The notes under the pieces: model-generated
The model's input: the letters and a program-made list of their open reading frames with translations, nothing else
Told to the model about the DNA's origin: nothing
Database searches by the model: none
Position numbers and translations under genes: made by a program
Virus record (IMG/VR): IMGVR_UViG_3300017824_001452
Origin: a virus
Strand: one strand, 5' to 3'
DNA length: 64,000 bases
In this document: in pieces, positions 4,371 to 64,000 of the stretch
Layout of the letters: the number at the start of each line of letters is the position of its first letter
Numbering within the stretch: the stretch's first letter is position 1

Positions 4371-4669
4371 AAGAAGTAAATTATGACGAATTAAATCGTA
4401 TCAGAGAATTATCAGGTACGTTGCGTGAATCATGGCAAGAGAAAATGAAAGATAGACCTATGCCATTTGATGCACAAATATTAGATGATGAACCTGCAAC
4501 TGTAATGAATCCTATCAGTGGTGCTACTATTAAACTTGACCCACAAGAAATTGCAGTATATGATGTTATCATGGGTGCGAACTTAACACAGCAATGGGAC
4601 TTAGTAAGAAAAGGTTCTGACTGGTTTAGAAAACATAATCCAGAAGCATATATGGTTTTAATAGACTAA
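4367..4669 (+). CDS. Hypothetical protein with DELNRIRELSG motif (putative virion-internal)
   Basis: ATGA overlap with upstream stop and GGAG upstream support the start at 4367 (MKEVNYDELNRIRELSGTLRES), not the track's 4304. Confidence 0.75.
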   Translation: MKEVNYDELNRIRELSGTLRESWQEKMKDRPMPFDAQILDDEPATVMNPISGATIKLDPQEIAVYDVIMGANLTQQWDLVRKGSDWFRKHNPEAYMVLID

Positions 4670-4836
4670 TGAAGATAAGAGAAGTTATTACAGAGGCTGA
4701 CGTAGAATACAGTTCTACAAAGCCCGGGAAACGTATGCACAAGATTGGTGATATATATGGTAAAAAGAATACCGATCTGCCCACCGCTAAATATAAAGAT
4801 AATAGAAACGATAAACAAAAAGGAATATTTAAATGA
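4669..4836 (+). CDS. Small basic protein (55 aa) with capsid-targeting-like N-terminus MKIREVITE
   Basis: Not in ORF track; TAATG and ATGA overlaps with both neighbours fill the gap exactly. Confidence 0.7.
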   Translation: MKIREVITEADVEYSSTKPGKRMHKIGDIYGKKNTDLPTAKYKDNRNDKQKGIFK

Positions 4837-5318
4837 AAAAAATAGTATTTGGAGTAGTCGCAGTTGTAGTAATTTTACTTGCATTTGCAGGCTGCCAAGA
4901 AAAAAGACTCGGTAGTGATCCAGTCACATTAGCATTACAAGTTACTAATAAAGGAGATCAATCATTCCAATGTAAGCAAACTTGGGGTGTCGATAAAAAA
5001 GATGTTACTACTGATGTTGCTGTAGGACAAACTGTAAACTTACAGTCTAATACACATTCACCATCAGGATCAGTACTTACATGTTACATTACTCCGCCGA
5101 CATCAGTAAAAGACCCTAATCCAGGTAATGGTAACTTTCAAATGAGTTATGGCTACTGGAGTGGCTCAGCACACGTAACATGTGATAACGATTGTAACAA
5201 AGGTTATCCTACTGCATCAGTTCATTACACAGGTAATAATTGGAAATATACAGCAACTTTTGCAAAACCACAATCAGAACCTTACAACTCTGTTGTAATC
5301 ACTACCGGCGATCTCTAA
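4833..5318 (+). CDS. Predicted lipoprotein, beta-rich, Cys-containing
   Basis: MKK, hydrophobic stretch and lipobox LAFAG-C. Confidence 0.7.
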   Translation: MKKIVFGVVAVVVILLAFAGCQEKRLGSDPVTLALQVTNKGDQSFQCKQTWGVDKKDVTTDVAVGQTVNLQSNTHSPSGSVLTCYITPPTSVKDPNPGNGNFQMSYGYWSGSAHVTCDNDCNKGYPTASVHYTGNNWKYTATFAKPQSEPYNSVVITTGDL

Positions 5319-5319
5319 T

Positions 5320-5889
5320 ATGAAATCAAGGGACTTCAGAAAACTGAACGAGAGCATTGATTTTTCAGTGACGAAGTCCTATGTGGATGACAGAGGCAAA
5401 ACCGTACATGATATGAGTCACTTTGGTGAACGCAAAGATGTAGATTGTTGGGTTTGTGATGGTACAGGTAAAGACAAATATTACGATGAAGCGGACTGTG
5501 ATTATTGCGAGGGTAAAGGACAAAGACTTGAGTTTGTAAGTGATGCTCCTGAAATGAATGTCAGTAATTCTAATGCATTTAAAATCATTGATATGTTAGG
5601 ATTAGAAAAAGTTGCAGGACATGTAGATAATAAAGATTTGCCTGCTGTCATGCGTAGACTTATACAATTAAAAAATGCAGACACATCACAATATACTGAG
5701 CCAGGTTCAATGACAGGCGGTAAGATAGGTGCGTATAAAGACAAAGACGGTATGGATAGAATAGGAAAAACAGGTATAACTATGTACCACGGTGGCACTA
5801 GTGACAGACAAATAAATCAGTACATCGATCAATTAATAAAAATAGTTAAATTTGCCCAAGACAATGACGCCGACTTCGGTTGGGGATAG
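5320..5889 (+). CDS. Hypothetical protein with DnaJ-type zinc finger
   Basis: CWVCDGTG and CDYCEGKG; N-terminus MKSRDFRKLNE. Confidence 0.7.
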   Translation: MKSRDFRKLNESIDFSVTKSYVDDRGKTVHDMSHFGERKDVDCWVCDGTGKDKYYDEADCDYCEGKGQRLEFVSDAPEMNVSNSNAFKIIDMLGLEKVAGHVDNKDLPAVMRRLIQLKNADTSQYTEPGSMTGGKIGAYKDKDGMDRIGKTGITMYHGGTSDRQINQYIDQLIKIVKFAQDNDADFGWG

Positions 5890-5892
5890 TCA

Positions 5893-6363
5893 ATGAAAAT
5901 AAAAATCGTACCAACTGAACCTCGTTGCGGTGATTGTACAATGTGTTGTCAAACTGTAGGGTTTACAGGAGATTGGAAGATTACTGATCTTTACAACGAA
6001 GCAGAAAAATTTGATATTGATTTCGGACCCTGGGAAACTTGCAATAAACTATGCGACACCGGGTGTTCTATACAAGAAAATAAACCTAGAGTCTGTAAAG
6101 AATTCTTTTGTCAATTTATAGAACGCAACCTTTCAGAAAAACACCATCCTAAAAATACAGGGTTTGTAACGTTTAGAGACGGTTTACCCTTAAACAGTCG
6201 AATTGTCATACACTCTAATGATAAAGAATTACCGCCCGATATTCAATACAAAAACAATAAAGAATTACTCAACGACATGTTAGATGAAATGCAAGATAAA
6301 TTAGGACAAGATTGGCTGTTTGCTCAATTAAGTACTAAAAAAGGTAAGATAAGAATACGATGA
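5893..6363 (+). CDS. YkgJ-like CxxCxxCC zinc/Fe-S cluster protein
   Basis: CGDCTMCC...CNKLCDTGCSIQENKPRVCKEFFC pattern. Confidence 0.7.
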   Translation: MKIKIVPTEPRCGDCTMCCQTVGFTGDWKITDLYNEAEKFDIDFGPWETCNKLCDTGCSIQENKPRVCKEFFCQFIERNLSEKHHPKNTGFVTFRDGLPLNSRIVIHSNDKELPPDIQYKNNKELLNDMLDEMQDKLGQDWLFAQLSTKKGKIRIR

Positions 6364-7802
6364 GATTTTTTATCTGCAAGGAAAAATCTAAATTTACAAA
6401 AGACTGGAACATAGAAAATTTTGGTGATTGGTATTTTATACGTGAAAATGATGTTGAATTATTTGAAGGAGAAAATTTTATTGTATTACATTCCGGTTAT
6501 TTAATTGACGATGACATAGATGAAGTTTGTAAAAACTTTAGTTTTAAAAAAACCAATGGAAATTTCTTTGCAATAAAACTCACCAAAGACAATTATGAAT
6601 TAGCATTAGATTATTTTCAAAACCATAAATTGTTTATCGGTAACAAACACGGTATAGAAATTACTAACTATTTGCCCTACATGACAATTAAGCAAGAAGA
6701 CATTGTTAGAACAAGTGTTAAACCAGATCAATATGAACGTGAACTATCAGAAACAGAACGCACTACTTATTATGATAAGATATTTATTTTTGATCCAGGC
6801 TATGATTACATACAAGATGCAAAAGATGCATTTGCACAAGAAATTTGGCATGATCAAGCAGAATTAACCGACTATATACATGGGTGTATGCAACAACACG
6901 CAGATATTATTAAAGAAAAATATCCAGTTAGGATGTGTTCTTTGAGTGAAGGATTTGATTCAGCAGTACAAGGTCAATTTTTTAAAGATGACCGACAATT
7001 ATTATATATTGTAGAGCCGTGCATTTCAGCAGAAAACCATAAAAAATTTATAAAATTAGCACAAGAACAGTTTCCTAATACGCATGTTATGGAATATGAA
7101 ACACAATATAACAGACAGCATTGCCTAGATCACTTGACGGATTCTTCATGTCGTTGGCAATCTGTACTGCCAACACTGATGCAAGTAAAAATGCAAGACA
7201 TTAAACCTGATATTATCATGTACGGCAGTAATGGTAACGAGATGTTTTGTAGAGATTTAATACCTCATATGTTATTTTTGTGTTTACAGTATTATAACAC
7301 TGATAAAATTAAAATGAAAGAAGATTTTTTAGCAGATATACGAAACAAAAATAATCTATATGGCTCTACATATTCAATATTAAATTCTGAAGAAGAACAG
7401 AACTCACACCACGGTTTTACTGCTATTGTTAATAAATTTGTTGACAAATGGTTTGACTCACCGAATACACACTATCTATCACATAAAAAATATGAAGAAT
7501 TTGAAAATGAATTAATAAATCTTACAACTCCTAAATTATATACACGTGTAATTACAGGTAATATAAACATTATGGCTTCATCATTATACAGTGATAGAAA
7601 GATATTTTATGAATTTTTAAAATCTGATAACAATGTATTAAGTGGTACTGCAATGAACGCACCAACACAACGAGCATTGCTAGATAAATATAACTATAAG
7701 TTTGTAACACCACGCAATGATGTAGTTTTTGCAGACTACAATGAATTATATACTACATCTTATGAAGCCACTATTGACCACGATTTAGAGCAAAACATAT
7801 GA
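6360..7802 (+). CDS. Divergent asparagine synthetase-like (PP-loop) protein
   Basis: SLSEGFDS resembles the SGGxDS PP-loop; YGSNGNEMF resembles GxGADExF; N-terminal region is GATase-like. Confidence 0.5.
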   Translation: MRFFICKEKSKFTKDWNIENFGDWYFIRENDVELFEGENFIVLHSGYLIDDDIDEVCKNFSFKKTNGNFFAIKLTKDNYELALDYFQNHKLFIGNKHGIEITNYLPYMTIKQEDIVRTSVKPDQYERELSETERTTYYDKIFIFDPGYDYIQDAKDAFAQEIWHDQAELTDYIHGCMQQHADIIKEKYPVRMCSLSEGFDSAVQGQFFKDDRQLLYIVEPCISAENHKKFIKLAQEQFPNTHVMEYETQYNRQHCLDHLTDSSCRWQSVLPTLMQVKMQDIKPDIIMYGSNGNEMFCRDLIPHMLFLCLQYYNTDKIKMKEDFLADIRNKNNLYGSTYSILNSEEEQNSHHGFTAIVNKFVDKWFDSPNTHYLSHKKYEEFENELINLTTPKLYTRVITGNINIMASSLYSDRKIFYEFLKSDNNVLSGTAMNAPTQRALLDKYNYKFVTPRNDVVFADYNELYTTSYEATIDHDLEQNI

Positions 7803-8422
7803 GAGCAACAGAATTTATAAGTGAAGGATTTGCAGGAATACCTGATTATAAAACAATGCCTGCTTACAAACTTAAAAAAGCATCTAAAGGTAAACACAAA
7901 TTCTTTTTGCCTACAGACACTCCTGTCCCTGCAGGTGTATCTGCATTAGACGAATACAATTTAGATAATGAAAAAGGTTTGGGTGTCGTTCCTAATAATA
8001 CAGGCGGTCAACCAGACTATTTCGGTATTCGTGTTATGATGAAACCTTCTACATTTCATAAGTTAGCATTAAGTTTACCAAGAGATATGCGTAGTTCACA
8101 ATATGAAGATTTAGTTGATAAAGTTCGTAAGGGCGTCCCTATTGCAAGTCCTTTCTTATCTATTGTAATACCCGATGAGTGGGAAGAAGGCGATCTATCA
8201 CAGCCTGCGAAGGTCACAGGGCACGAAGGAAGACACAGAATGTATGCAGTCGATGAAGTAGACGGAGACGTTCCAGTTGAAGTACATATATGGGGAAGAT
8301 TTAAATCTAGTGAAATGCGTAGGCGACATCTCACCGATGAGATGATACAAGAACTAATAAATGGACTCGTTGACGAGACCGGAAATAATTACATTCCTAA
8401 TATCGGCACACTAAAGAACTAA
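7799..8422 (+). CDS. ParB/sulfiredoxin-like domain protein with capsid-targeting-like N-terminus
   Basis: VTGHEGRHR matches the ParB/Srx dG.HR motif; N-terminus MRATEFISE. Confidence 0.6.
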   Translation: MRATEFISEGFAGIPDYKTMPAYKLKKASKGKHKFFLPTDTPVPAGVSALDEYNLDNEKGLGVVPNNTGGQPDYFGIRVMMKPSTFHKLALSLPRDMRSSQYEDLVDKVRKGVPIASPFLSIVIPDEWEEGDLSQPAKVTGHEGRHRMYAVDEVDGDVPVEVHIWGRFKSSEMRRRHLTDEMIQELINGLVDETGNNYIPNIGTLKN

Positions 8423-8423
8423 T

Positions 8424-10067
8424 ATGTCTAAAGGTCACATGATAATCATGGGTGGGTTTATCGAACTGCATGACAATATGTTTGAACAAGCCGATGATCT
8501 TACAGAATATTGGTGGCCCAGTCTTAAACGAAGTGCAGGTAGTCATCGCATTGCAACTGTACTTAGAGAAGAAGGTTATGATGTAGAAGTACTTGATTTT
8601 TGGCCTGCTTGGTCTCGTTTACAATTAATACAATTTTTTCAAACACATGTAAGAGAAGATACATTGGCAATTGGACTTTCAGTAATGTTTCCGTTCGGAA
8701 ACATAGCCCGCAAGGGTGTCGGCGCTAAAAAGAAAATCCTAGAAATGCTTCAAACGATAAAATTTTTAAAAGAACTATATCCACATGTTAAATTTGTAGG
8801 AGGATCGCAAAATTTAGTATCGTTGACAGATTGGGATTTAGATTATTATGTAACTGGGTATGCAGAACTTGCAATTAGTGAACTGCTTAAATATTTTAAA
8901 CGTGAATTTAATACTTTAAAAATAACAGAACGTAAACTAGATCATAAAAAAATAAATGTTATAGATTCTTTGCATGATTATCCAGCATATCCTATGCCTA
9001 CTGCTCATATAAAGTATGAAGAACGAGATTATATAAAACCCACCGAAGTATTGTCTTTAGAACTTTCTCGAGGTTGTAAATTTGCTTGTAAGTTTTGTGC
9101 GTTTAGTTTATTGGGAGTAAGGGGAGATTATTCTCGGTGTAAGGATAGCCTTAGAGAAGAATTGTTAGATAATTATAACAAATGGGGAGTTACAAATTAT
9201 AATTGCACTGATGAAACAATCAATGATAAACCTGAAAAATTAGCCAAATATGCTGAAGTAATTAGAAGTTTACCGTTCCAACCCCATATGGGAGGATTTA
9301 TGAGAGCGGACTTGTTAGTAGCCAAACCTAGTACATGGCAAGATTTATATGATATGGGTTTACGATCACACTATTATGGTTTAGAATCTTTCAATCATGA
9401 GGCGGCTAAGTATGTAGGTAAAGGCATGAACCCAGATAAACTAAAAAGTGGGTTACTTGAAGTACAAAAATGGTTTAAAGACAAAGAAGCAGGGAGAGGA
9501 GATTATAATGTCCATACATCAATAATTTTAGGATTACCGGGCGAGACAAAAGAGTCATTCCTTGAAGGTGCAGACTGGTTAAAGAATAACTTTGGTGGTC
9601 ATTCATATGGGATATCTGTTTTGTATATGGGAGATTCTACTATGGCTAACTTTCTTTCGCATCCTTCAGAGTTTGAGGTTACATGGAGAGAAGGAGATGT
9701 ATTTAGACAATTATCATTAGAAGACCTAAAAGAATTAGATAAAGCAGATCCGATAAAAGATCCTGAAATTAGAACAGAAATATTTGAAAGAAATCAAGTT
9801 AAGTGGGAACATGATACTATGAACATTTGGGACGCATATAAAACATTTGACGAAATGATGGCTGATCCTAATTCATTAAAAAATCATGTCAGTGGACCCG
9901 GTCCTTTTTCTTATCACAGATTTCTTACAACAGGTAAATATACAATGCAAGATATTTACGATAATACTTACGGAGAAAACGGTTTTGAACAAATAACTGA
10001 TAGTGATATAAATAGTCATAGAGAATTTCTTAATGATTATATTAATAAAAAATTAGGCAAAGAGTGA
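8424..10067 (+). CDS. B12-binding-type radical SAM protein
   Basis: LELSRGCKFACKFC (CxxxCxxC), GLESFN, IILGLPGET; N-terminal Rossmann-like domain. Confidence 0.85.
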   Translation: MSKGHMIIMGGFIELHDNMFEQADDLTEYWWPSLKRSAGSHRIATVLREEGYDVEVLDFWPAWSRLQLIQFFQTHVREDTLAIGLSVMFPFGNIARKGVGAKKKILEMLQTIKFLKELYPHVKFVGGSQNLVSLTDWDLDYYVTGYAELAISELLKYFKREFNTLKITERKLDHKKINVIDSLHDYPAYPMPTAHIKYEERDYIKPTEVLSLELSRGCKFACKFCAFSLLGVRGDYSRCKDSLREELLDNYNKWGVTNYNCTDETINDKPEKLAKYAEVIRSLPFQPHMGGFMRADLLVAKPSTWQDLYDMGLRSHYYGLESFNHEAAKYVGKGMNPDKLKSGLLEVQKWFKDKEAGRGDYNVHTSIILGLPGETKESFLEGADWLKNNFGGHSYGISVLYMGDSTMANFLSHPSEFEVTWREGDVFRQLSLEDLKELDKADPIKDPEIRTEIFERNQVKWEHDTMNIWDAYKTFDEMMADPNSLKNHVSGPGPFSYHRFLTTGKYTMQDIYDNTYGENGFEQITDSDINSHREFLNDYINKKLGKE

Positions 10068-10078
10068 TAAATATTAAT

Positions 10079-11338
10079 ATGGACAAGTATAAAAAGACAG
10101 CAGGATTAAACTATTTGAGTGAAAACTCATATAAGGGAGACGGTTCTCCTGGCATGGTAATGGGTATTGCTAGTGATGCTCGTAGTGATACTAACACATA
10201 TGAAGGTAAAAAGCCTACGACTAACAGTAAACACAGTACTGAAAGAGAACTAAAGAAATATGATCCAGCACATGGTCATACAAAACCAGAAGGGGGAAAT
10301 CCCCAAGTATGTCCTAGTTGTAAGGGAGAAGGTTGTACATCATGCGGAAACACAGGAGAAGTCATCAGCAAAAAACGCAATGACCCTAAAGTCGATGAAT
10401 CATTAGAAGATATTAAAAGATTATCTGGACTAACAGAGTCTGGTTTTACAGGGGTTGAGGAAATTGATTTATTAAATGACCCAAATGGTGATCGCACACA
10501 GAAAGCAATATTAAGGCATCAATTAATGACAGATTATAATATTACTTTTTTACCTATACCTGGTGATATTGTTGATCATCCTGAGTTAGGCAAAGTAAAA
10601 GTTTTAAAAATTATAGGTCTTGATACTTATGGTGGTCCAGCAGAATATGAAATAGAGAATAGAAACGGTAAATCTTTTCCTATAACTTTTGATGAGTTGA
10701 CAGATATGATTGGCTTCGGAGAAATAAGTGATGTGCCACAATCAGAAATATCAGAAGATATTAAAAGATTATCTGGCTTATCAGAAGCATTTGCTTGGGA
10801 CGAGATTGACGAAGCAAAACGAAAGGCAAGACATGATGATGACGATGATGAAGAAGAAGATGAAAAGCCAGAAGATCCTGAAAAAGATAAAGTCCCGCAT
10901 ATTTTAATGCAACTAAGAAAAGCCCAAGACGTAGACGGCGATCACCCAATTAAGTTTTTAGACGGTTCAGAAGTTATTTTACCATTAAAAGATATCAATT
11001 TGTTTACAGAAATGTACATGAATGTCAAGCCACAAGACAGAGAAAGATTACAACAAGTGGCTATTATGAGTAAAGATAAGTTTGATAAACTATTGACGTT
11101 CTTCACACCGAAACACGGAAAATTAGAAAAGAGTATCTATGAAGATGAAGAAGCAGGAGATATGATTACAGAAGAACAGTTTGACGAAGCCGCAGGCAAA
11201 AAAGATGCTTGTTATCACAAAGTCAAAAGCAGATATAAAGTATGGCCTAGTGCATACGCATCTGGTGCTTTAGTTAAGTGTCGTAAAGTAGGTGCATCCA
11301 ATTGGGGCACTGGCGGAAAGAAAAAGAAGAAAAAATAA
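10079..11338 (+). CDS. Modular putative virion-internal protein (zinc finger, two EDIKRLSGL linkers, acidic tract, C-terminal KKDACYHKVKSRY module)
   Basis: Start reassigned to the ATG 5 nt after late box GATAAATA (10066-10073); motifs read directly from the translation. Confidence 0.75.
   Translation: MDKYKKTAGLNYLSENSYKGDGSPGMVMGIASDARSDTNTYEGKKPTTNSKHSTERELKKYDPAHGHTKPEGGNPQVCPSCKGEGCTSCGNTGEVISKKRNDPKVDESLEDIKRLSGLTESGFTGVEEIDLLNDPNGDRTQKAILRHQLMTDYNITFLPIPGDIVDHPELGKVKVLKIIGLDTYGGPAEYEIENRNGKSFPITFDELTDMIGFGEISDVPQSEISEDIKRLSGLSEAFAWDEIDEAKRKARHDDDDDEEEDEKPEDPEKDKVPHILMQLRKAQDVDGDHPIKFLDGSEVILPLKDINLFTEMYMNVKPQDRERLQQVAIMSKDKFDKLLTFFTPKHGKLEKSIYEDEEAGDMITEEQFDEAAGKKDACYHKVKSRYKVWPSAYASGALVKCRKVGASNWGTGGKKKKKK
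10405..10776 (+). repeat. 24-nt exact direct repeat AGAAGATATTAAAAGATTATCTGG (10405-10428 and 10753-10776) encoding EDIKRLSG
   Basis: Identical 24-mers flank a ~110-aa internal module; a diverged third copy lies near 4146. Confidence 0.85.
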
Positions 11339-11652
11339 TGCGTATTAATGAAATCTTAACTGAGTCAATTATCCAAGAAGATTTACGAGCCTGGTTCGGC
11401 AAAGGCAAAGACGGTGGTGCCGGAGGCGGTGGTTGGGATAGATACAATACCAAAGGCGAACGTGTAGGTAAATGCGGTGATGGTAAAGGCAAAGGCAAAC
11501 CTAAGTGTTTATCTAAAAGTAAAGCCGCAAGTCTACGTAACTCTGGTGGCAAGAAAGCAATTGGAAACGCAGTCAAAAGAAAGAAAAAGAATGACCCTAA
11601 TAAGAATCGCAGGGGTAAAGCAAAGAACGTAAGCAACAAGCCGAAGAAGTAA
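11338..11652 (+). CDS. Small Gly/Lys-rich basic protein with capsid-targeting-like N-terminus MRINEILTE
   Basis: TAATG overlap with upstream stop supports the start at 11338; EDLRAWF...KPKC pattern. Confidence 0.75.
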   Translation: MRINEILTESIIQEDLRAWFGKGKDGGAGGGGWDRYNTKGERVGKCGDGKGKGKPKCLSKSKAASLRNSGGKKAIGNAVKRKKKNDPNKNRRGKAKNVSNKPKK

Positions 11653-11653: not shown

Positions 11654-11848
11654 ATGAGAGCATCTGAAGTTGTCAAGCCATATCATCTTTATGCCGCAAC
11701 TGTGTTTGTACAGCAACCGGGATACACAGGCAACATGGACTTCACTGTCTCTGCTCAAACACATTTTGAAGCAAGACAATTAATGAAAAAGATGTATAAT
11801 ATTCCTGACTATAGAATAGGAAGTTTACGTTTAGTTAAACGAGGTTAA
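11654..11848 (+). CDS. Small hypothetical protein (MRASEV N-terminus)
   Basis: Packed ORF directly after the previous gene. Confidence 0.65.
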   Translation: MRASEVVKPYHLYAATVFVQQPGYTGNMDFTVSAQTHFEARQLMKKMYNIPDYRIGSLRLVKRG

Positions 11849-17352: not shown

Positions 17353-17613
17353 CTCTCTTTTGTTGACATCCTTGCAGATTTCTTTTGCAAGATCACTACC
17401 AGTTGTCACAAACAAAAACGGAAAGAACGCATGTATGATAACAGCAAGGCCTGTTAATAGCATACTTACACCATAGTACAATGCACAACTTAAATGTTCC
17501 GTGTATGTTTCACCCAAAGAGTGTGGATGTTCTGTAAATTTGTTTCGGAGTTTATTGAAAAACGTGATTGTTTTGCTCTCCGTATATTTTAATATACTTG
17601 CCGGCAATTTCAT
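17347..17613 (-). CDS. Small membrane protein, DUF6356-like (start uncertain)
   Basis: FTEHP..GETY.EH...HAFFPFLF..TGS signature. Confidence 0.6.
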   Translation of the reverse strand: MKLPASILKYTESKTITFFNKLRNKFTEHPHSLGETYTEHLSCALYYGVSMLLTGLAVIIHAFFPFLFVTTGSDLAKEICKDVNKREL

Positions 17614-18091
17614 CTGCTTCTGATTCTATAGGAGACCCTGGATAACTTGAATTGGGTGTGATTAAACCTTTTTCTCCTTGTCTGATATGAACAAGTTCAT
17701 GGAATACTGTTCTAAGAATATCAATTAGATTTCTGTTGCCATAGACCCAAATCTCGTCAGAACCAAGTTCGTGTCTACCCGTATGATGACCGTCTTGTGC
17801 CTCTTGTGTATCATAACTTAACTTGACTTTAGGCATATTTTCAATTTTTAAAACATTACCCATCCAATGTGCGGCTTTTGTTACTTCATCCTCAATGTTT
17901 AAACCATCATCAAACATTTGATCAGAAGCAGTTAATTCTTGTCTTGCTTTGTGTGCTTGTTTGGCAGCCTGCTTGGCATTACGATAAATTTTACCTTTTT
18001 CGTCTACGTTATATTGATCACTCTTAATCTTGGGAAGTCTGTTTTCCAAGTCTTTAAGCGGATCTTCATTGATAAATTGATAGGCTCTCAT
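17552..18091 (-). CDS. Zincin-like metallopeptidase with capsid-targeting-like N-terminus MRAYQFINE
   Basis: FHELVH (HExxH) plus downstream E.EA; start reassigned to the ATG 5 nt after GATAAATA. Confidence 0.7.
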   Translation of the reverse strand: MRAYQFINEDPLKDLENRLPKIKSDQYNVDEKGKIYRNAKQAAKQAHKARQELTASDQMFDDGLNIEDEVTKAAHWMGNVLKIENMPKVKLSYDTQEAQDGHHTGRHELGSDEIWVYGNRNLIDILRTVFHELVHIRQGEKGLITPNSSYPGSPIESEADEIAGKYIKIYGEQNNHVFQ

Positions 18092-18096
18092 ACTAT

Positions 18097-18104
18097 TATT
18101 TATC
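18097..18104 (-). promoter_or_regulatory. Late promoter GATAAATA (leaderless geometry)
   Basis: 5 nt upstream of ATG at 18091; no SD. Confidence 0.6.
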
Positions 18105-19519: not shown

Positions 19520-20145
19520 TGCCAAGACTTGTCACGTTTGGATGTTCATTTACATACGGCCACAGTTTACCTGACTGTTATATAGGAAATGGACGTCCAG
19601 GTGATTCTCCTAGTAAGTTTGCTTGGCCAAATCTACTAGCAGAAAAGTTAGATTACGAGTGTTTAAATTTATCTGCTTGTGGTTCGGGTAATTATCAAAT
19701 TTTACTAGATATTTTACGGACAGATTTTAAACAGGATGATTTAGTTGTAATAGGATATTCGTATTTTGATAGATATGAAAATTACCTAATGACTGATAAA
19801 ATTGACGCAGGCTTTCAAATAACTTCAGAGTCTAAAGAACTTCAACATAGAATAGAAATCAATAAAGTTATGTTAGGTGAGACAAGTGAAGAACAAAAGT
19901 TTTGGAATAATTGGTTATCCATACAACATGCAGAAATGATATTAAACTCTAAAAATATAAAAAATTATTCGTTTCTCAATGTGCCAGAAATAGCACAAGA
20001 AACAAAACCTGACTTGATCGAAATGCAAAACTTTATCGATCATATCAAATTAACATTTAAGGATTATGCTTTGGACAAAGAACATCCAGGAATTGAGACT
20101 CATCAGTTGCAATCAGAACAACTTTATAGTACAATAGCACTATGA
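19519..20145 (+). CDS. SGNH/GDSL-like hydrolase
   Basis: FGCSFTYG block I, GSGN, D..HP block V. Confidence 0.65.
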   Translation: MPRLVTFGCSFTYGHSLPDCYIGNGRPGDSPSKFAWPNLLAEKLDYECLNLSACGSGNYQILLDILRTDFKQDDLVVIGYSYFDRYENYLMTDKIDAGFQITSESKELQHRIEINKVMLGETSEEQKFWNNWLSIQHAEMILNSKNIKNYSFLNVPEIAQETKPDLIEMQNFIDHIKLTFKDYALDKEHPGIETHQLQSEQLYSTIAL

Positions 20146-22856
20146 GTTATATCGACGCCATACATGATAAATCTGCGGAACGAATACATGTCGTAGAACG
20201 TACCCCTGAGGGTAACAGAGACTTTAAAGAGTATCCTACGAATTATGTTCTGTATTATGAAGATCCTAAGGGCAAACATCGATCACTTTATGGCACTCCT
20301 GTCAAAAAGTTTTCGTCACGTAAACAAGCAGAGTGGGAGAAAGAGAAACGCATCCACGGTAAGAAACGTCTGTTTGAAGCAGACATTCCGATCGTCTTCA
20401 GATGCCTTAGTGAAAACTATCTGAAGGTTGATGCCCCTAAACTGCATACGTGTTTCTTTGATATCGAGGTAGACTTTGATCCTAGTAGAGGATTCTCTCC
20501 TCCAAGTGATCCATTCAATCCTGTGACTGCTGTTAGTCTATACTTAGACTGGCTTGATCAGTTAGTATGTCTTGCAGTTCCCCCTAAGCATATGACGTAT
20601 GAGACTGCACAAGAAGCAATCGCAGAGTTCCCTGATACTATGTTGTTCAGAACAGAGAAAGAATTGTTTGATGCATTCTTTTCTTTAATCGAAGATGCAG
20701 ATGTGTTGTCAGGTTGGAACTCAGAAGGATATGATATTCCGTATATGGTCAATCGTGTTACACGTGTGATGTCTAAAGATGATACACGTAGATTTTGTCT
20801 GTTAGGGCAGTATCCTAAGAAACGTAAATATGAACGATTTGGTAAAGAAGAAGAAACGTTTGACTTAGTTGGTCGTATTCACTTAGACTATCTACAACTC
20901 TATAAAAAGTACAACTATGAATCTCGCCATAGTTATAAACTAGATGCGATTGGTGAAATGGAAGTTGGTGAAAAGAAGACTGAGTATGAAGGGTCACTAG
21001 ATCAACTGTACAACAAAGACTTTAAAAAGTTCATCGAATATAACAGACAGGATACATTACTGCTTAAGAAACTAGATGATAAGTTGCAGTTCTTAGAACT
21101 TGCTAATCAACTGGCGCATGAAAATACTGTGTTGCTTCCAACTGTTATGGGCTCAGTTGCTATGATTGAAATGGCAGTGATGAATGAAGCACATGAACGT
21201 GGCATGGTTGTACCCAATAAGATAAGACAGAATATCAATACAATCAGTGAAGGACAAGCGGCAGGTGCTTATGTGATGAATCCTAAGAAAGGACTACATG
21301 AGTGGATAGGCTCTATTGATATTAACTCACTTTATCCTTCAACTATTCGTGCATTGAACATGGCTCCAGAGACAATCGTCGGGCAAGTCAGACAGACTCT
21401 TACTGAACAATATATGCAAGAGAAAGGACTGGAACTGGCTAAGAAGAAACCTAGATACAAAGAAGGTGATGCTCCAGTAGAAGGACCCGTACTATGGGAA
21501 GGTCTTTTCGGCTCACTAGAGTACACTGCCATTCAAAATCAGGAACGTGGCACTATGCTGACGATTGATTATGAAGATGGCAGAGAAGAACAGATGAGTG
21601 CCGCAGAAGCATGGAAGATGATTTACGATTCTAATAATCCTTATATCCTTAGTGCAAATGGTACAATCTTTAGATCAGATACTGAAGGTGTGATTCCTGG
21701 ACTGTTATCTAAATGGTATTCTGATCGTAAGATTATGCAAGGTAAACTCAGAGAAGCAACTACAAAAGAAGACATTGAGTATTGGGACAAACGTCAGTTA
21801 GTTCGTAAAATTTTGCTTAACTCTGCATATGGTGCACTTTTGAATGAGCATTGTCGATTCTATGATAAACGCATAGGACAAAGTACAACACTCACAGGTC
21901 GTTCTATCACTAAGCATATGTCAGCATTTGTTAATGAAATAATGACTGGTAAATATGATCACACAGGTGACTCAATGATTTATGGTGATACTGACTCATG
22001 TTACTTTAGTGCATGGCCCATGCTTAAAGATGATCTTCCAGCAGATATGTCATTAGAAGACAAAAAGCAGACATTTATTGACTTGTATGAAAGTATGTCT
22101 GACCAATGTAATGTATCGTTTCCTGGCTTTATGGAAAAAGCATTTCATTGTCCACGTGACAAAGGTATGATTATCAAAGGTGGCAGAGAAGTCTGTGGTG
22201 ACAGAGGATTGTTTATTACTAAGAAAAGATATGCAATCAATATCTATGATGCAGAAAATAAACGTACTGACAAAGATGGTGCGATGAAAGTTAAGGCAAT
22301 GGGCTTAGACTTAAAGAGAGCAGATACTCCTGCATATGTACAAGACTTCTTAATGGAAGTTTTAGAAATGACACTATCAGGTAAACAACGTGATGATATT
22401 ATCGAAAAGATTAAAGAGTTTAAAATATCATTAGGTCAACAGGATTCTTGGACAAAAGGTTCTCCTAAGTCTGTTAACAAATTGACATATTATACTGAAC
22501 TAGAAAAGAAATCTAAGACTGGTCGAGCAAACATGCCGGGTCACGTAAGAGCGGCAATGAATTGGAACACACTTAAAAGAATACATGATGACAATTATTC
22601 AATGGAGATCATGGATGGATTCAAAGTAGTAGTATGTAAACTCAAAACTAATGCGTTAGGTTATACGAGTATTGCATACCCTACAGATCAACTTAGACTT
22701 CCTGAATGGTTCAAAGACATGCCATTTGATGACAACTTAATGGAGTCTACTTTAGTAGATGAAAAAATCAGCAACTTGCTAGGAGTTCTTAAATGGGACT
22801 TACGAGCAAACACAGACACTAATTCAACGTTTGATGAGTTGTTTAGTTTCGGGTAA
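20142..22856 (+). CDS. polB: Family B DNA polymerase (T4 gp43-like)
   Basis: ExoI FFDIEV, ExoII GWNSEGYD, ExoIII YNRQD, DINSLYPS, KILLNSAYG, YGDTDS, KKRY. Confidence 0.97.
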   Translation: MSYIDAIHDKSAERIHVVERTPEGNRDFKEYPTNYVLYYEDPKGKHRSLYGTPVKKFSSRKQAEWEKEKRIHGKKRLFEADIPIVFRCLSENYLKVDAPKLHTCFFDIEVDFDPSRGFSPPSDPFNPVTAVSLYLDWLDQLVCLAVPPKHMTYETAQEAIAEFPDTMLFRTEKELFDAFFSLIEDADVLSGWNSEGYDIPYMVNRVTRVMSKDDTRRFCLLGQYPKKRKYERFGKEEETFDLVGRIHLDYLQLYKKYNYESRHSYKLDAIGEMEVGEKKTEYEGSLDQLYNKDFKKFIEYNRQDTLLLKKLDDKLQFLELANQLAHENTVLLPTVMGSVAMIEMAVMNEAHERGMVVPNKIRQNINTISEGQAAGAYVMNPKKGLHEWIGSIDINSLYPSTIRALNMAPETIVGQVRQTLTEQYMQEKGLELAKKKPRYKEGDAPVEGPVLWEGLFGSLEYTAIQNQERGTMLTIDYEDGREEQMSAAEAWKMIYDSNNPYILSANGTIFRSDTEGVIPGLLSKWYSDRKIMQGKLREATTKEDIEYWDKRQLVRKILLNSAYGALLNEHCRFYDKRIGQSTTLTGRSITKHMSAFVNEIMTGKYDHTGDSMIYGDTDSCYFSAWPMLKDDLPADMSLEDKKQTFIDLYESMSDQCNVSFPGFMEKAFHCPRDKGMIIKGGREVCGDRGLFITKKRYAINIYDAENKRTDKDGAMKVKAMGLDLKRADTPAYVQDFLMEVLEMTLSGKQRDDIIEKIKEFKISLGQQDSWTKGSPKSVNKLTYYTELEKKSKTGRANMPGHVRAAMNWNTLKRIHDDNYSMEIMDGFKVVVCKLKTNALGYTSIAYPTDQLRLPEWFKDMPFDDNLMESTLVDEKISNLLGVLKWDLRANTDTNSTFDELFSFG

Positions 22857-43085: not shown

Positions 43086-43123
43086 AGGTTTATTTATCCA
43101 TCACTTTATAAGAGTATTTATCA

Positions 43124-44146
43124 ATGTTTACAGATAATAATATTAAACGCATAGGTTTCGCCTGCAAATGGTCTGAGATCAATGACAAAGATCAACTAGT
43201 TTCTACTGAGGGACTCAATACAGGTGGCACTACACTAACGTGGTTGCGTAATAACCCTGACAAAGCAGAAGACAAGATGTGGGAAGTCATGGAACGCAAC
43301 TTGACTAATACATACAATCTTGTATCTAAAGTTGCTACTCTTCCCCTATCACTACGTATGGTACGTCTAACTAGTGATATGATGACTGGTTACACACATC
43401 CGGAGTTCTCATATTTTTACAAACGTGCTGATGTTATCAATCGCATGGAGCAACTATGTGCGCCGATCGGTGAAGTTGCACGTGCAAACAATGTTAGACT
43501 ATCATTTCATCCAGGTCAATTTACTGTCCTTGCTTCAGAAACTGACAGTATTGTCGATAATAGTATAGAGGAGTTTGAATATCATGTGGATATGGCAAGG
43601 GCAATGGGTTACGGTAAGCAATTTCAGGACTTCAAAATCAACGTACACATCTCAGGACGTAGAGGTCCCCAAGGTATCATTGATATCTTACCTAGACTCT
43701 CTCCCGAGGCCCGCAACACAATCACAATCGAAAACGATGAAATGTCATGGGGACTTGACGCAAGCCTCGAACTCGCCGATCATCTTGCACTCGTACTGGA
43801 CATACACCATCACTGGGTCAAAGAGGGAGAATATATTCTACCAACAGATGATAGATGTAAACGTATAATTGATTCTTGGCGAGGTGTTCGTCCTGTCATT
43901 CACTATTCAGTATCACGTGAGGATTATCTTACAGGACACAACCTTGATCAAATGCCCGATCTGAATACTCTACTAGAGTCAGGGCACAAGAAACAAAAAC
44001 TTAGGGCACATTCTGACTACTACTGGAACAATGCTGTTAATGATTGGGCCATCGAACATCTATCATGGGCTGATATGATGTGCGAGTCTAAAGCAAAAAA
44101 TCTTGCGTCCTTCCAATTACATGATAAGTATATAGAGAGGACTTAA
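43124..44146 (+). CDS. uvsE: UV damage endonuclease
   Basis: IGFACK, RLSFHPGQF, IENDE, VLDIHHH, HYS, AHSD, MCESKAK. Confidence 0.93.
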   Translation: MFTDNNIKRIGFACKWSEINDKDQLVSTEGLNTGGTTLTWLRNNPDKAEDKMWEVMERNLTNTYNLVSKVATLPLSLRMVRLTSDMMTGYTHPEFSYFYKRADVINRMEQLCAPIGEVARANNVRLSFHPGQFTVLASETDSIVDNSIEEFEYHVDMARAMGYGKQFQDFKINVHISGRRGPQGIIDILPRLSPEARNTITIENDEMSWGLDASLELADHLALVLDIHHHWVKEGEYILPTDDRCKRIIDSWRGVRPVIHYSVSREDYLTGHNLDQMPDLNTLLESGHKKQKLRAHSDYYWNNAVNDWAIEHLSWADMMCESKAKNLASFQLHDKYIERT

Positions 44147-46483: not shown

Positions 46484-47491
46484 ATGAAATATGCCCTTAT
46501 AGATACGGCAAACACGTTTTTTCGTGCCCGTCATGTCGCAAGTCGGAATTCAAATACTTGGGAAAAGATAGGTATGGCACTGCATCTACAGTTAGCATCT
46601 GCTAATCAGGCAGTGCGTAGGTTTGGTATTGACCATGTTGTATTTTGTTTAGAGGGTCGTTCATGGCGTAAAGAGTTTTACACACCTTACAAAGCAAATC
46701 GTAAGGTAGCGGCACAGTCATTGACTGAAGCGGAACAAGAAGAAAATGAAATGTTTTGGGAGACTTATGAAACATTTACAACGTATCTCAAGGACAAGAC
46801 TAACTGTAGTGTCTTACGAGATCCCAATGCTGAGGCTGACGATTTGATTGCTCGTTTCATTGCATTACATCCTGATGATGAACATGTCATTATATCTAGT
46901 GACTCAGATTATGTTCAACTTATCGCAGAGAATGTACATCAATACAATGGCGTGTCTAATCAGTTTATCTGCTTAGATGGTTACTTTGATGACAAAAATC
47001 GTCCAATCAAAGACAAGAAAACAGGTGAACCCAAGTTACTTGAAGACCCTGCTTATCTACTCTTTGAAAAATGTATGCGTGGCGACACTACTGATAATGT
47101 GTTTAGTGCATATCCAGGTGTACGTAAGAAGGGTACAAAGAACAAAACAGGTTTGCTAGAAGCATATGCAGATAAAGACAAGGGTGGATTCAACTGGAAT
47201 AACATCATGTTACAACGTTGGACTGATCATAATGAAGTCGAACATAGAGTACGTGATGATTATGAACGCAATCGTGTGTTGATCGATTTGACAGCACAAC
47301 CCGAGGTTATTAGAAATCAAGTTGATACTACTATCAAAAATGGCGTAAATGAAAAGAAAGAAGTCCCTCAAGTAGGTGTACACTTTATGCGTTTTTGTGG
47401 TAAGTATGAACTTAACAGAATCAGTGATCAAGCAGATAGTTATTCTAAATGGTTGAACGCACCATATTCAGGGAAACTAGTAGATGGTTAA
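46484..47491 (+). CDS. rnh: T4 RNase H-like 5'-3' exonuclease
   Basis: LIDTAN, SWRK..Y..YKANR, EADDLIA, ISSDSDYVQL, GDTTDNV. Confidence 0.9.
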   Translation: MKYALIDTANTFFRARHVASRNSNTWEKIGMALHLQLASANQAVRRFGIDHVVFCLEGRSWRKEFYTPYKANRKVAAQSLTEAEQEENEMFWETYETFTTYLKDKTNCSVLRDPNAEADDLIARFIALHPDDEHVIISSDSDYVQLIAENVHQYNGVSNQFICLDGYFDDKNRPIKDKKTGEPKLLEDPAYLLFEKCMRGDTTDNVFSAYPGVRKKGTKNKTGLLEAYADKDKGGFNWNNIMLQRWTDHNEVEHRVRDDYERNRVLIDLTAQPEVIRNQVDTTIKNGVNEKKEVPQVGVHFMRFCGKYELNRISDQADSYSKWLNAPYSGKLVDG

Positions 47492-57608: not shown

Positions 57609-57652
57609 ACTAAGTAAGTTAAATTAATAACGCCCAAGTTAGGAGGGTAAGT

Positions 57653-58381: not shown

Positions 58382-58391
58382 GAGTTATTAT

Positions 58392-59357: not shown

Positions 59358-59366
59358 GTACATCAT

Positions 59367-60569
59367 ATGAGTGAAAAAAATGAGTTTCATTGTTCTTTTT
59401 GTGGTACACACAAAGAAAATGTACAAAAATTAATTGTCGGTGAACAAGTAGCAATCTGTTCTGATTGTGTTGCCCTTTGCCAAACATTAATTGAAGAAGA
59501 ACAACCAGATGATGCTCAAGCAAAATCTGATGTTATAGAAAAGGTTGAACCTCATGCTATACTTAGACACCTAGATAAGTATGTTGTTGGTCAGAAGTCT
59601 GCTAAAGAGGTCCTAGCAGTAGCAATTACTAATCATTACAAACGTGTATTCAATCCTCCCCCTGCAGGATTAACTATTCAAAAAGGTAACGTACTTTTAT
59701 TAGGACCAACAGGGTGTGGTAAAACTTTACTTGCACAAACAGTTGCAAAATATCTTAATGTTCCTTTTATTGTTGCTGATGCTACTAACTTAACCGAAGC
59801 AGGATATGTCGGTGAAGACGTAGATAGTATGATAAGTGTATTATTATCAAAAGCAGACGGTGATGTAGCAAAAGCAGAACGTGGCATCATTTTTATTGAT
59901 GAAATAGACAAAATAGCACGTAAGAGTGAAAACGTTTCTATAACACGTGACGTAAGCGGAGAGGGCGTACAACAAGCACTTTTAAAGATTGTAGAAGGTA
60001 CAGTATGTCGTGTTGCTCAACACGGCAAACGTAAGCACCCTCAGGAGCCCCTCATTGAAGTTAATACTAAAGACATACTCTTTATAGCAGGCGGTGCATT
60101 CGATGGTCTAATAGACGTTGTGAAGGCTAGAACAACGGGTACAAACATAGGTTTCGGTAGTGAATTGAAAGATACAGAGTCAGGGCATTTTAAAGATGTA
60201 AAAGCAGATGACTTAATGAAGTTTGGAATGATTCCTGAATTTATTGGAAGATTCCCTACAACAATTAATGTAGAAGAATTATCTAAACAAGAACTAATCA
60301 AAGTACTGACAACAGTTAAAAATAATTTTATTGATCAATACACCTATCTTTTTAGCATTGATGAGATTGAGTTGTCTTTTACTGACGATGCGATTGAAGA
60401 AATAGTAATTAATTGTATGCAACAAAAGACAGGCGCACGTGGTTTACAAACAGAAATAGAAAGAGTTTTACGACCTCATATGTTTGATTCAGGAAAATAT
60501 AAAAAGAAAGGTATTACGGAACTAAATATAGACAAGGAATTAGTAATTAACCCACAACCAATTAAATGA
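59367..60569 (+). CDS. clpX: ATP-dependent Clp protease ATP-binding subunit ClpX
   Basis: CSFCG zinc finger, [39 protein letters not shown] loop, TGARGL. Confidence 0.97.
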
Positions 60570-60862
60570 CATATAGAACTAACAAACATAAAGGAAGAAA
60601 TTTTAACGACAGGAAAAAACCATTCGTTCAACAACCTCGAGGCAACAAAGTTGTTGTAATCGACGGCAATGTAGATCAAGCATTACGTAAATTTAAAAAG
60701 AAAGTTTCAAACTCTGGCTTAATTGATGACATCAAAAAGAATGAATTTTATGAAAAGCCAACAAATAAAAGAAAAATTAAAAAAGCAATGGCTATCAAAC
60801 GTGAAAAGAAAAGACAAGCCACTGAGTTAGGACCACGTAGTCCTAGAAGTAGAAAATATTAA
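60566..60862 (+). CDS. rpsU: 30S ribosomal protein bS21 with basic N-terminal extension
   Basis: NVDQALRKFKKKV...G...FYEKPT.KRK.KK. Confidence 0.88.
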   Translation: MTYRTNKHKGRNFNDRKKPFVQQPRGNKVVVIDGNVDQALRKFKKKVSNSGLIDDIKKNEFYEKPTNKRKIKKAMAIKREKKRQATELGPRSPRSRKY

Positions 60863-60914
60863 CCCAAAATTACTTGAAAAATACTTTTTTATCATTATAT
60901 AATGATAAATAGTT

Positions 60915-60994
60915 ATGTGAAAAAGATAGGTTTCTTATTCACATGGATGCCGAAAGGGTCCAAACTTTAATCTTGCTTTAAAAAGGAGAATATT
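60915..60994 (+). promoter_or_regulatory. ROSE-like RNA thermometer in hsp20 5' UTR
   Basis: Two hairpins, then UCUUGCU pairing with AGGAGA SD with a bulged G; late box at 60904. Confidence 0.65.
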
Positions 60995-61450
60995 ATGACA
61001 AGCAATATACCAACCTTACGTCTAAAATCTTTAGACATACCCTCAATACATAAATTTGGAATCGGGTTCGATTCGATCTTTGATGACCTTAATCGACTAG
61101 CCGCAGTTGCTGGGAAGGATAATTATCCTCCCTACAATGTAGTCAAGCATGACGATGACAATTATGTTATCGAACTTGCAGTCGCAGGGTTTAGTAAAGA
61201 TACTATTTCTATTGAGGTAGATCAAAACCAGTTAAAAATCTCATCTAAAGTAAAAGAAGATGTTGATGAAGGACTGGAGTATTTGCACAGAGGAATTAGT
61301 GCAAGACACTTTGAGAGATCATTTACATTAGCAGATCACGTTTACGTAAAAGATGCTAAAATGACAGATGGAATCTTAAAAGTTATCTTAGAACGTCAAT
61401 TACCTGAGGAACTCAAACCCAGAACTATTGACATCTCCTCTGATAAATAA
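60995..61450 (+). CDS. Small heat shock protein Hsp20 (IbpA-like)
   Basis: IGFD, NYPPYNV, ELAVAGF, YLHRGIS.R.F.RSFTL, DGIL. Confidence 0.95.
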   Translation: MTSNIPTLRLKSLDIPSIHKFGIGFDSIFDDLNRLAAVAGKDNYPPYNVVKHDDDNYVIELAVAGFSKDTISIEVDQNQLKISSKVKEDVDEGLEYLHRGISARHFERSFTLADHVYVKDAKMTDGILKVILERQLPEELKPRTIDISSDK

Positions 61451-61466
61451 TATAATAGAGGTATGT

Positions 61467-61490
61467 TGTGCGTAGTTTCGGCTACGCACA
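61467..61490 (+). other. Stable UUCG-tetraloop hairpin between hsp20 and clpS (terminator or 5' stabiliser)
   Basis: TGTGCGTAG-T-TTCG-G-CTACGCACA, just downstream of late box 61442. Confidence 0.6.
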
Positions 61491-61520
61491 CATTTAATCA
61501 CTCTAAACCAAGGAATTATT

Positions 61521-61835
61521 ATGACACAAGAATTTGATGCAACAACAGAAGGAAAAATCAAACCTAATTTCGCATTGCAGGAACCGCCTTTGTTCAAAGT
61601 TATTTACATCAATGATGAAGTAACAACTATGGAATTTGTCGTAGATACCTTATGTGATTATTTTTCTTACAATCCAGATACCGCATCCAATATTACTGCT
61701 GACATTCATAGAGACGGTTCGGCTACTGTAGCAGTTTTACCCTACGAGATCGCAGAACAAAAAGGTATCGAAGTTACTTTAGAAGCACGTTCAAAGGGTT
61801 ATCCGCTTCAAATCAAAGTAGAAGCAGAATCTTAA
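61521..61835 (+). CDS. clpS: N-end rule adaptor ClpS
   Basis: PPLFKVIYINDEVTTMEFVV, IHRDGSA, YEIAEQK, GYPL. Confidence 0.93.
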   Translation: MTQEFDATTEGKIKPNFALQEPPLFKVIYINDEVTTMEFVVDTLCDYFSYNPDTASNITADIHRDGSATVAVLPYEIAEQKGIEVTLEARSKGYPLQIKVEAES

Positions 61836-62563: not shown

Positions 62564-62573
62564 TTATTATGCC

Positions 62574-62870
62574 TTACTTGATTTGTAAATTAGGCTTTGC
62601 TGATCCTTTTTTAGGTCCAGACTTTTTAGGTGCTGCCTTCTTAGGGGCCGCTTTTTTTGCAGTAGTCTTTTTAGGTGCCGCTTTTTTAGGAGCAGTTTTA
62701 GCAGGTGCCTTTTTTCTAGGAGCCGCTTTTGCTCTTGGTTTAGCAGGAGTTTTTGGAGTAGTTACTGTAGAAGATTTACCGCTAGATTTTTTATCATCTT
62801 TTTTACGGTAAAAATAAACTACGGCGACAACTACTGCCAAGCCTAAAATGACTGAAATTTCATTTTCCAT
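62574..62870 (-). CDS. N-terminally membrane-anchored protein with histone H1-like KKAAP tail
   Basis: TM VILGLAVVVAVVYFY then KKAPAK/KKAAPKK repeats; AAGGAG SD. Confidence 0.8.
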   Translation of the reverse strand: MENEISVILGLAVVVAVVYFYRKKDDKKSSGKSSTVTTPKTPAKPRAKAAPRKKAPAKTAPKKAAPKKTTAKKAAPKKAAPKKSGPKKGSAKPNLQIK

Positions 62871-62890
62871 ATTATCTCCTTTTGGATTAC

Positions 62891-62919
62891 ATTCTACATT
62901 GTATTTATGAGGAAGTCAA
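62891..62919 (-). promoter_or_regulatory. sigma70 promoter with late box nested in the spacer
   Basis: TTGACT-N17-TAGAAT; spacer contains CATAAATA. Confidence 0.55.
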
Positions 62920-62984
62920 CTGCTTTGTTTTTTATTTTAACCAAATAATTTTATAAATAATTATGACACAGAGGAGAATCATCA

Positions 62985-63488
62985 ATGAAAAAAGAGAGGG
63001 CTGAAAAAATCCTAAACTTTTGGATGAACGAAAAACTACCTACAGTAGCCCAACAAAAACGACAACCATACAGACCTGATCTTTATATAGTACGCAAAAC
63101 ATGGCGAGTACTAAATGCCACATGTTTTAACAACGAACTTAAAATGCCGGCATTTACATTTCACTCTCGCAAGTCATGGTGGGCAATGTGTTGTAGTGAT
63201 GATAGCAAACCAAGAAAATTAAAATCAAAATCCTGTTGTGAAATACAACTAAGTGATAAGTGGTTTTGTAGGCAATGGTTTATTGATACACTTGCACATG
63301 AAATGGCACATCAATATCAATGGGACATCGATGGTGTAAAACGAGTCAACAAGGGTTGGGAGCCTATTATGTCTCATGGACCTTCATTTTTTAAACATAG
63401 AGATAACATTGACAAATACGGCATGTCTTTAAAAGTATGTCACAGAAACGCCAAATGGTTTAAGTATCAGTCTTTAAAGAAATGCTGA
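62985..63488 (+). CDS. SprT-like zinc metalloprotease
   Basis: LN..CF.NEL, TLAHEMAHQYQ, SHGPSF; TATAAATA and GAGGAG upstream. Confidence 0.8.
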   Translation: MKKERAEKILNFWMNEKLPTVAQQKRQPYRPDLYIVRKTWRVLNATCFNNELKMPAFTFHSRKSWWAMCCSDDSKPRKLKSKSCCEIQLSDKWFCRQWFIDTLAHEMAHQYQWDIDGVKRVNKGWEPIMSHGPSFFKHRDNIDKYGMSLKVCHRNAKWFKYQSLKKC

Positions 63489-63499
63489 TAAATACTATC

Positions 63500-64000
63500 A
63501 TGCATGATTCATTACTTAACACATTAGATTTAATTAACGAAGACGTAACTCTTAGTGCCAGTCAAATTAATAAGTATCAGGAAAGATTTGACAAGTTTAT
63601 TGAGATGATTCGTACTGGCATGGCCTTTTACACTGTAGACAGAGAAGCAGTAATTGCTGAACCTAGTGAAGCAGATAGATTTCAAGGTTTAAAAGACGAA
63701 GATCAGTTTAAGGGCGGACTTAAAATTAAATTAGAAACTGGTGATGAGATACCTTTAAGTAAGTTACTAAAGACACCAGACTTAGGTGGACAAGCAATCG
63801 TTGGGCAAGATGAAGGAGAGTCTACTGAAGAAGTCGGTAAAGAATCAGCAGTACTCAAACCGTCTCAAATCGGAATCACAGATAAAGATATTCCAGCAAG
63901 TAAATTAGGTCAAGAAATTATTGCTAATGAGTCACTAAACTCTACTGAATATGGTAAAGTTGTAGTGCAAATGGCTATTGATATTATGGAAGGTAAGAAT
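63500..64000 (+). CDS. 3'-truncated protein with capsid-targeting-like N-terminus (MHDSLLNTLDLINE)
   Basis: GATAAATA-N5-ATG; frame open to the window end; not in track. Confidence 0.7.
   Translation, partial: MHDSLLNTLDLINEDVTLSASQINKYQERFDKFIEMIRTGMAFYTVDREAVIAEPSEADRFQGLKDEDQFKGGLKIKLETGDEIPLSKLLKTPDLGGQAIVGQDEGESTEEVGKESAVLKPSQIGITDKDIPASKLGQEIIANESLNSTEYGKVVVQMAIDIMEGKN

Follow-up and report, generated by a model that had tools for sequence, protein, structure and literature searches.

A portable family of N-terminal leaders resembling the T4 capsid-targeting sequence on unrelated proteins of an uncultured phage

In phage T4, the capsid-targeting sequence (CTS) is the textbook route by which proteins are loaded into the head for injection, and cargo such as IPI and Alt can disarm or reprogramme the host at entry. 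Here we describe a family of short leaders of similar form in the IMG/VR virus record IMGVR_UViG_3300017824_001452, of which the whole stretch analysed (64,000 nucleotides) is hereafter called the window. The leaders are 8–15 amino acids (aa) long, begin at the start codon and form a real family, i.e. a conserved and portable N-terminal module on unrelated proteins. We judge it likely, with a probability of roughly 70%, that they are T4-type capsid-targeting propeptides on diverse cargo that are removed by a protease, because the motif has the T4 form, the module is portable, the cargos are unrelated, and the lineage has both an S77 protease and a T4-type head module.

The CTS of the T4 proteins IPI, IPII, IPIII and Alt is removed by the gp21 prohead protease, and its ten residues are sufficient to package foreign proteins (Mullaney and Black 1996, summarised in PMC9026906 and PMC5694885). 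Mutagenesis of the ten residues assigned targeting to residues 4 and 7 and processing to residues 8 and 10, and the CTS has already been proposed in print as a means by which T4-like phages recruit varied proteins (PMC9026906). IPIII is required by T4 for the infection of at least one Escherichia coli strain (PMC9391042). Protease-processed, head-packaged cargo occurs also in phiKZ-like giant phages such as SPN3US, but their propeptides are mostly longer than 100 residues, compared with 8–15 here (PMC5694885). Another point of comparison is ORF89 of the Ralstonia phage RsoM2USA, a jumbo phage with an S77 protease: its leader, of ten residues, is T4-like, and it is a purified-virion protein (PMC8504454). 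It differs in being a repeat protein, i.e. a different cargo, from a distant phage.

An earlier note on this DNA had quoted eight N-termini as carrying such leaders, and all eight are present, at 4669, 5320, 7799, 11338, 11654 and 63500 on the plus strand and at 18091 and 43085 on the minus strand. We defined the tight form of the leader by the regular expression M-[KRQ]-x-x-[EQDKN]-phi-phi-x-E (nine residues; phi, hydrophobic) and scanned all six frames of the window, which hold 2743 Met codons. Five matches were found, every one at a gene start (4669, 7799, 11338, 18091 on the minus strand and 35368), compared with 0.16 expected from position-specific N-terminal frequencies, and none of 20000 column shuffles reached five. 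The match at 35368 is absent from the earlier list. The tight motif is also enriched at gene starts relative to internal Met sites in two IMG/VR relatives (G001 and G006, described below) and in RsoM2USA. By contrast, the looser rule of the earlier note, [ILF]-x-E at no more than about 13 residues from Met, is not enriched (15% of N-termini vs 20% of internal Met sites), and the leader variants therefore need other support. A literature search for the leader strings found nothing relevant.

The leaders have ends of the (L/I)-x-Glu type: ITE (4669), LNE (5320), ISE (7799), LSE (10079), LTE (11338), INE (18091), IQE (43085) and INE (63500). That at 10079, a 15-mer ending in YLSE, is an additional leader that had been overlooked. 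The cutting motif of the SPN3US type is (S/A/G)-x-E.

These leaders share with the T4 CTS (i) a position at the extreme N-terminus, a length of about ten residues and the order acidic, hydrophobic, hydrophobic, any residue, Glu; (ii) unrelated, partly basic cargo; and (iii) a lineage that encodes an S77 protease together with a T4-type head module. They differ in having nine residues instead of ten, and their cargos have no homology to T4 proteins. The cargos include zincin-like, ParB/Srx-like and GP88 proteins in the window and GNAT, amidoligase and nucleotidase proteins in relatives. The role of the leader in this phage is read from sequence alone. When both are anchored at Glu, positions 6, 7 and 9 here, which are the conserved ones, are the counterparts of T4 residues 7, 8 and 10; F, I, V or L always stands in the place of T4 residue 7, and mostly Ala in that of Tyr4. 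The T4-type form had been proposed before and agrees with our scan of the T4 genome itself, in which a regular expression one residue longer finds IPII, IPIII, gp24 and Alt, together with gp61.1 and one internal false match. The propeptide of the T4 vertex protein gp24 provides a close parallel: without its second residue, this ten-residue peptide almost coincides with the 11338 leader. The gp24 protein belongs to the shell, whereas the 11338 cargo is a Gly/Lys-rich basic protein of 95 aa. As a side observation, gp61.1 (NC_000866, 18966–19130, minus strand) is a hypothetical protein of 54 aa encoded beside the primase gene, and its first ten residues conform to the CTS pattern; it could be packaged by T4 without having been recognised as such.

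The cargos are unrelated, as had been claimed: once the first 15 residues are removed they show no mutual similarity, and no BLASTP pair between them falls below E = 0.05. Beyond the window, one leader-coding DNA pattern gave at least 142 matches at gene starts on at least 120 viral contigs of IMG/VR. Among the 142 matches listed, 140 begin an open reading frame (ORF) with 40 aa or more, and 134 have an upstream stop no more than 30 codons away; the matches listed fall into at least 37 unrelated cargo clusters of 60–583 aa. The shortness of the motifs speaks for an origin by chance or by common descent of paralogues, but this explanation is barely credible against five tight matches where 0.16 are expected, cargos without mutual relationship in the window and at least 37 cargo clusters elsewhere.

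The window has a G+C content of 34–38% and carries nearly all of its genes on one strand. Its family-B DNA polymerase (20142–22856) reaches a best identity of 49% (Phosso, Atu_ph07, Serratia BF and relatives) and is less than 60% identical to every record of the phage collection searched, and megablast of the window against known phages returned no nucleotide match. A 41-mer taken from the window has no exact counterpart among the viral contigs. Given the polymerase identity and the absent nucleotide match, the window therefore comes from a jumbo phage, uncultured and belonging to the T4-related group in the wider sense. IMG/VR holds three relatives that are used here: G001 (128 kb) is syntenic across the whole window, mostly at 88–94% nucleotide identity with two blocks at 78–81%; G005 has 49 kb; and G006 has 335 kb, is estimated to be 95% complete and has a DNA polymerase with 74% identity.

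Comparison with homologues points to conservation of the leader as a peptide. The family of the zincin-like protein at 18091 has about 1400 members, and the leader is present in 103 of the best 120 homologues; in an alignment of 28 sequences (49–89% identity), Met1 and Glu9 are invariant, level with HExxH. For the 7799 protein, a tight leader is found in 34 of 64 metagenome homologues and a relaxed leader in several more. Its ParB/Srx-like domain stands behind at least five different N-terminal modules, with the leader first every time. The RsoM2USA homologue of the 7799 protein has a ten-residue leader with four differences from the T4 IP tag, and 4 kb separate its gene from that of the head protease. 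A comparison of the 11338 leader in the window, G001 and G005 shows four synonymous and no non-synonymous changes, and the 5320 leader keeps 10 of its 11 residues in the G005 orthologue, in which the whole protein is 61% identical.

Leaders have also been exchanged between orthologues of the window and its relatives. The G005 orthologue of the 4669 protein retains the mature part but has a different leader, the first 21 bases of which are those of the 7799 leader in the window; 5 of the 10 differences between the two orthologues lie inside the 9-aa leader, with the motif intact (Fisher p = 0.006). In P0017 and P0020, two proteins from metagenomes, a tight-type leader is fused to the NSY(K/R)GDGSPG of the 10079 protein directly after Glu. 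The G006 orthologue of the 43085 protein has an 8-aa core-type leader in place of the leader of a second type described below. The proposal that the leader is a portable N-terminal module is thus well founded, with the same tag on unrelated cargo and downstream modules that vary among homologues.

The safest calls in the window are the core 9-mers at 4669, 7799, 11338 and 18091. The first (4669–4695) precedes a basic cargo of 46 aa (gene 4669–4836, plus strand; 55 aa in total), and the third (11338–11364) precedes the 95-aa cargo noted above (gene 11338–11652, plus strand). Both proteins are small and basic (isoelectric points of 9.7 and 10.5), like T4 internal proteins. The 7799 leader (7799–7825; gene 7799–8422, plus strand) is followed by a disordered linker and a predicted ParB/Srx-like domain, and is identified by the tight expression, the homologues and a structural model. 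Its AlphaFold2 model has a mean predicted local distance difference test score (pLDDT) of 81, with residues 1–15 and 19–50 below 50, and the top Foldseek matches are sulfiredoxin, Osa, ParB and Noc (weak, E = 0.016). The ParB/Srx-like reading of the earlier note thus gains support at fold level, at a weak E of about 0.02. The 18091 leader (18065–18091; gene 17552–18091, minus strand) stands on the same three lines of evidence. Its cargo has an HExxH motif, and its model matches minigluzincins, Wss1 and SPRTN (Foldseek, E of about 0.02, high probability); fold and kept HExxH together favour the zincin peptidase that had been suggested. In both models the leader and the following linker are disordered.

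Four further genes are likely to carry leaders. That at 10079 has the 15-aa leader (10079–10123) and a modular cargo of 404 aa with two EDIKRLSG repeats (gene 10079–11338, plus strand). The looser leader at 5320 (5320–5352, 11 aa), which taken alone would be plausible, precedes a cargo of 178 aa with a CxxCxGxG zinc-knuckle (gene 5320–5889, plus strand). The other two belong to a second type, M-x-D...N-L-L...phi-x-E, a pattern that was defined post hoc and covers four genes only. These are the 13-aa leader at 43085 (43047–43085; gene 41187–43085, minus strand), with a cargo of 619 aa, and the 14-aa leader at 63500 (63500–63541; gene 63500–64000, plus strand), with a cargo that continues beyond the window end (517 aa in G001). 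The gp88-like identity suggested for the 43085 cargo agrees with a clear Pfam match to GP88 (PF17338, E = 2e-31). The G006 orthologue of the 63500 protein is 54% identical and has the same second-type leader, which in G006 is also found on an unrelated protein of 230 aa; the N-terminus of a 294-aa core protein of G006 loosely resembles the second type by eye, without a match to the post hoc pattern. We regard the two second-type leaders as likely, on thin evidence.

Of the remaining candidates, the tight match at 35368 precedes an acidic cargo of 47 aa (gene 35368–35538, plus strand), has one orthologue only and is a possible leader. The 64-aa basic protein that starts with MRASEV (11654–11848, plus strand) has a leader-like look but is doubtful: as a cleavable leader it is not supported, with no Glu at the site and no hydrophobic-x-Glu in the first 15 residues, and it would at best be an uncleaved tag. 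Pfam and PHROGs gave no family for most cargos.

The EDIKRLSG-type motif occurs in the window at 4146, 4394, 10406 and 10754, two of the copies being in the 10079 protein. In G001 the orthologue of that protein has 306 instead of 419 aa and is without precisely the module between the EDIKRLSG copies, as if the module had been lost or gained by recombination at the repeat. A giant protein (168–4370; its start is upstream) has a G001 orthologue of 2019 aa, in which the first 12 residues are a peptide ending in ILLE and the end is close to an EDIKRLSG motif; this protein, too, may be a precursor packaged in the head. A Ser/Gly-rich SG-x-(V/I)A-x-V...P-x-G stands directly after the leader in several small proteins that are otherwise unrelated (in G006 at 202652–203770 and at IMG/VR loci such as L250, L255, L308 and L315), and this motif may be a second shared module. 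Genes for a UvdE UV-endonuclease and a 5'-3' exonuclease (43124–44146 and 46484–47491) adjoin the GP88 gene.

ATAAATA-N5-ATG has four matches in the window compared with 0.72 expected, all at leader-gene starts, namely before the genes at 10079 (10067–10081, plus strand), 18091 (18089–18103, minus strand), 43085 (43083–43097, minus strand) and 63500 (63488–63502, plus strand). The ATAAATA box resembles the T4 late promoter TATAAATA. In G006, ATAAATA-N5 is found at a 75-aa head gene, the portal gene has a 4-nt spacer, and in several leader genes box and spacing are identical or almost so. The boxes would fit expression during head assembly, and their distance to ATG suggests leaderless late mRNAs. 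Four leader genes thus begin 5 nt past a late-promoter-like box, and the same favoured codons recur in many leaders, so that one could suppose translation-start constraints (A-rich first codons, leaderless late mRNAs) with no peptide signal at all. Yet synonymous sites vary while the peptide stays, Glu9 is invariant among homologues of 49–89% identity, leaders are also found on intra-operon genes with overlapping stop and start codons, and most genes of the window, including most behind ATAAATA boxes, are without a leader. We consider this account highly improbable.

The earlier note had called for a gp21 homologue, and such a protein is encoded by relatives (G006 and other leader-bearing contigs), but neither by the window nor by G001. 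The S77 peptidase of G006 (PF03420, E = 7e-29) belongs to a head run consisting of portal, a small protein, the 294-aa core protein, protease, scaffold and major capsid protein, and each of the five proteins after portal has a hydrophobic-x-Glu site in the first 16 residues. In the capsid protein, LLAE stands ahead of a Ser/Thr/Ala/Gly-rich stretch, as at the maturation site of T4 gp23. All five other long leader-bearing contigs (191–525 kb) encode S77, as do RsoM2USA, XacN1 and Atu_ph07. The calculated mass of RsoM2USA ORF89 is 28.56 kDa, and ORF89 (28.57 kDa) is among ten virion bands identified using liquid chromatography coupled to tandem mass spectrometry (PMC8504454). By eye, ORF88, ORF89 and ORF90 of this phage (65163–67654, minus strand) are three paralogous-looking repeat proteins, each with a different short leader-like N-terminus.

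If the leader works as in T4, it would bind the scaffolding core during head assembly and thereby bring the tagged protein into the prohead; cleavage by the head protease would follow, after the Glu that ends the hydrophobic-hydrophobic-x-Glu motif, and the mature cargo would remain in the head and enter the host with the DNA. Cargo injected in this way would comprise small basic proteins, the ParB/Srx-like protein, the zincin-like peptidase, the protein with the GP88 domain and modular proteins. We propose packaging, cleavage and injection by analogy with T4.

A propeptide cut by a protease might instead only hold enzymes inactive or time them, with cargo that is neither retained in the head nor injected. 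The motif does end in a protease site, several cargos are enzymes, and the packaging of the cargo is itself a deduction; this explanation is nevertheless unlikely, given that small basic non-enzymatic cargos are tagged too, that RsoM2USA ORF89 occurs in virions and that the same ten residues suffice for packaging in T4 (PMC9026906).

Recognition by other machinery than the prohead, such as a radical-SAM/B12 enzyme or the phage ClpX/ClpS, also has to be considered. The window encodes ClpX and ClpS, and a radical-SAM gene (8424–10067) sits between two leader genes. However, RsoM2USA, XacN1, T4 and 120 leader-bearing viral loci (982 kb) have no radical-SAM homologue, and the distant homologue in G006 lies about 75 kb from the leader cluster. 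The leader is not known to resemble published N-terminal ClpX motifs or ClpS N-degrons, and it ends in the S77 cutting motif, with S77 co-occurring in five of five long contigs. We therefore rate such a recognition tag as decidedly unlikely. A leader recognised by the radical-SAM enzyme in the manner of ribosomally synthesized and post-translationally modified peptides (RiPPs) was rejected in particular, because the enzyme does not co-occur with the tag (120 loci, three phages). The B12-binding radical-SAM enzyme itself shares only 54–55% identity with those of G001 and G005, in a region with otherwise about 90% nucleotide identity, and its gene looks like a swapped cassette. The genes of ClpX (zinc finger and AAA), Hsp20 and ClpS form a single stretch (59367–61835), close to an SprT-like zincin gene (62985–63488).

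The T4-type capsid-targeting reading has to be weighed against several results that count against it. Head genes, including that of the S77 protease, were found neither in the window nor in the 128 kb of G001, and among these relatives the protease is seen only in G006, at 74% DNA polymerase identity. Packaging and cleavage in the window phage and its close relatives are inferred by comparison, and the virion protein ORF89 is a single case from a distant phage and weak evidence (about 0.16 by chance, our own estimate). Atu_ph07 (MF403008.1) has S77 and a list of 147 virion proteins, yet essentially no such leaders, and the tag is therefore not universal in T4-related jumbo phages. The virion enzymes chitinase and lipase of XacN1 have no such leader either. 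Some ParB-like homologues have a leader without Glu, or none at all, and the loose phi-x-E rule is without the enrichment seen for the tight form. Finally, the earlier statement that the leader is mostly absent from metabolic genes holds within the window but not in relatives, where tagged enzymes include an NT5C nucleotidase, a GNAT acetyltransferase, an amidoligase and a protein with a weak HAD-like match; enzymes such as the nucleotidase have no obvious virion role.

A broader reading is that the tag marks a large arsenal of enzymes and small proteins, reshuffled by recombination, that is loaded into the capsid and injected as first-minute effectors in a widespread clade of uncultured T4-related jumbo phages. 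The arsenal would include, for example, zincin-like peptidases, ParB/Srx-like proteins, GNAT acetyltransferases, amidoligases and nucleotidases. We propose this tentatively, at somewhat below even odds.

In brief, T4 already provides the mechanism, and that other T4-like phages use it more widely has been suggested in print; our finding is therefore an extension of a known idea and does not overturn it. If the broader reading is true, the injected repertoire, probably including anti-defence proteins, could be read from sequence by means of the tag. A tag that works in distant uncultured jumbo phages would provide a simple sequence rule for listing injected proteins, and such a list would offer many candidates for enzymes of anti-defence and host takeover. 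The T4 way of loading proteins would, moreover, be shown to be ancient and in wide reuse.

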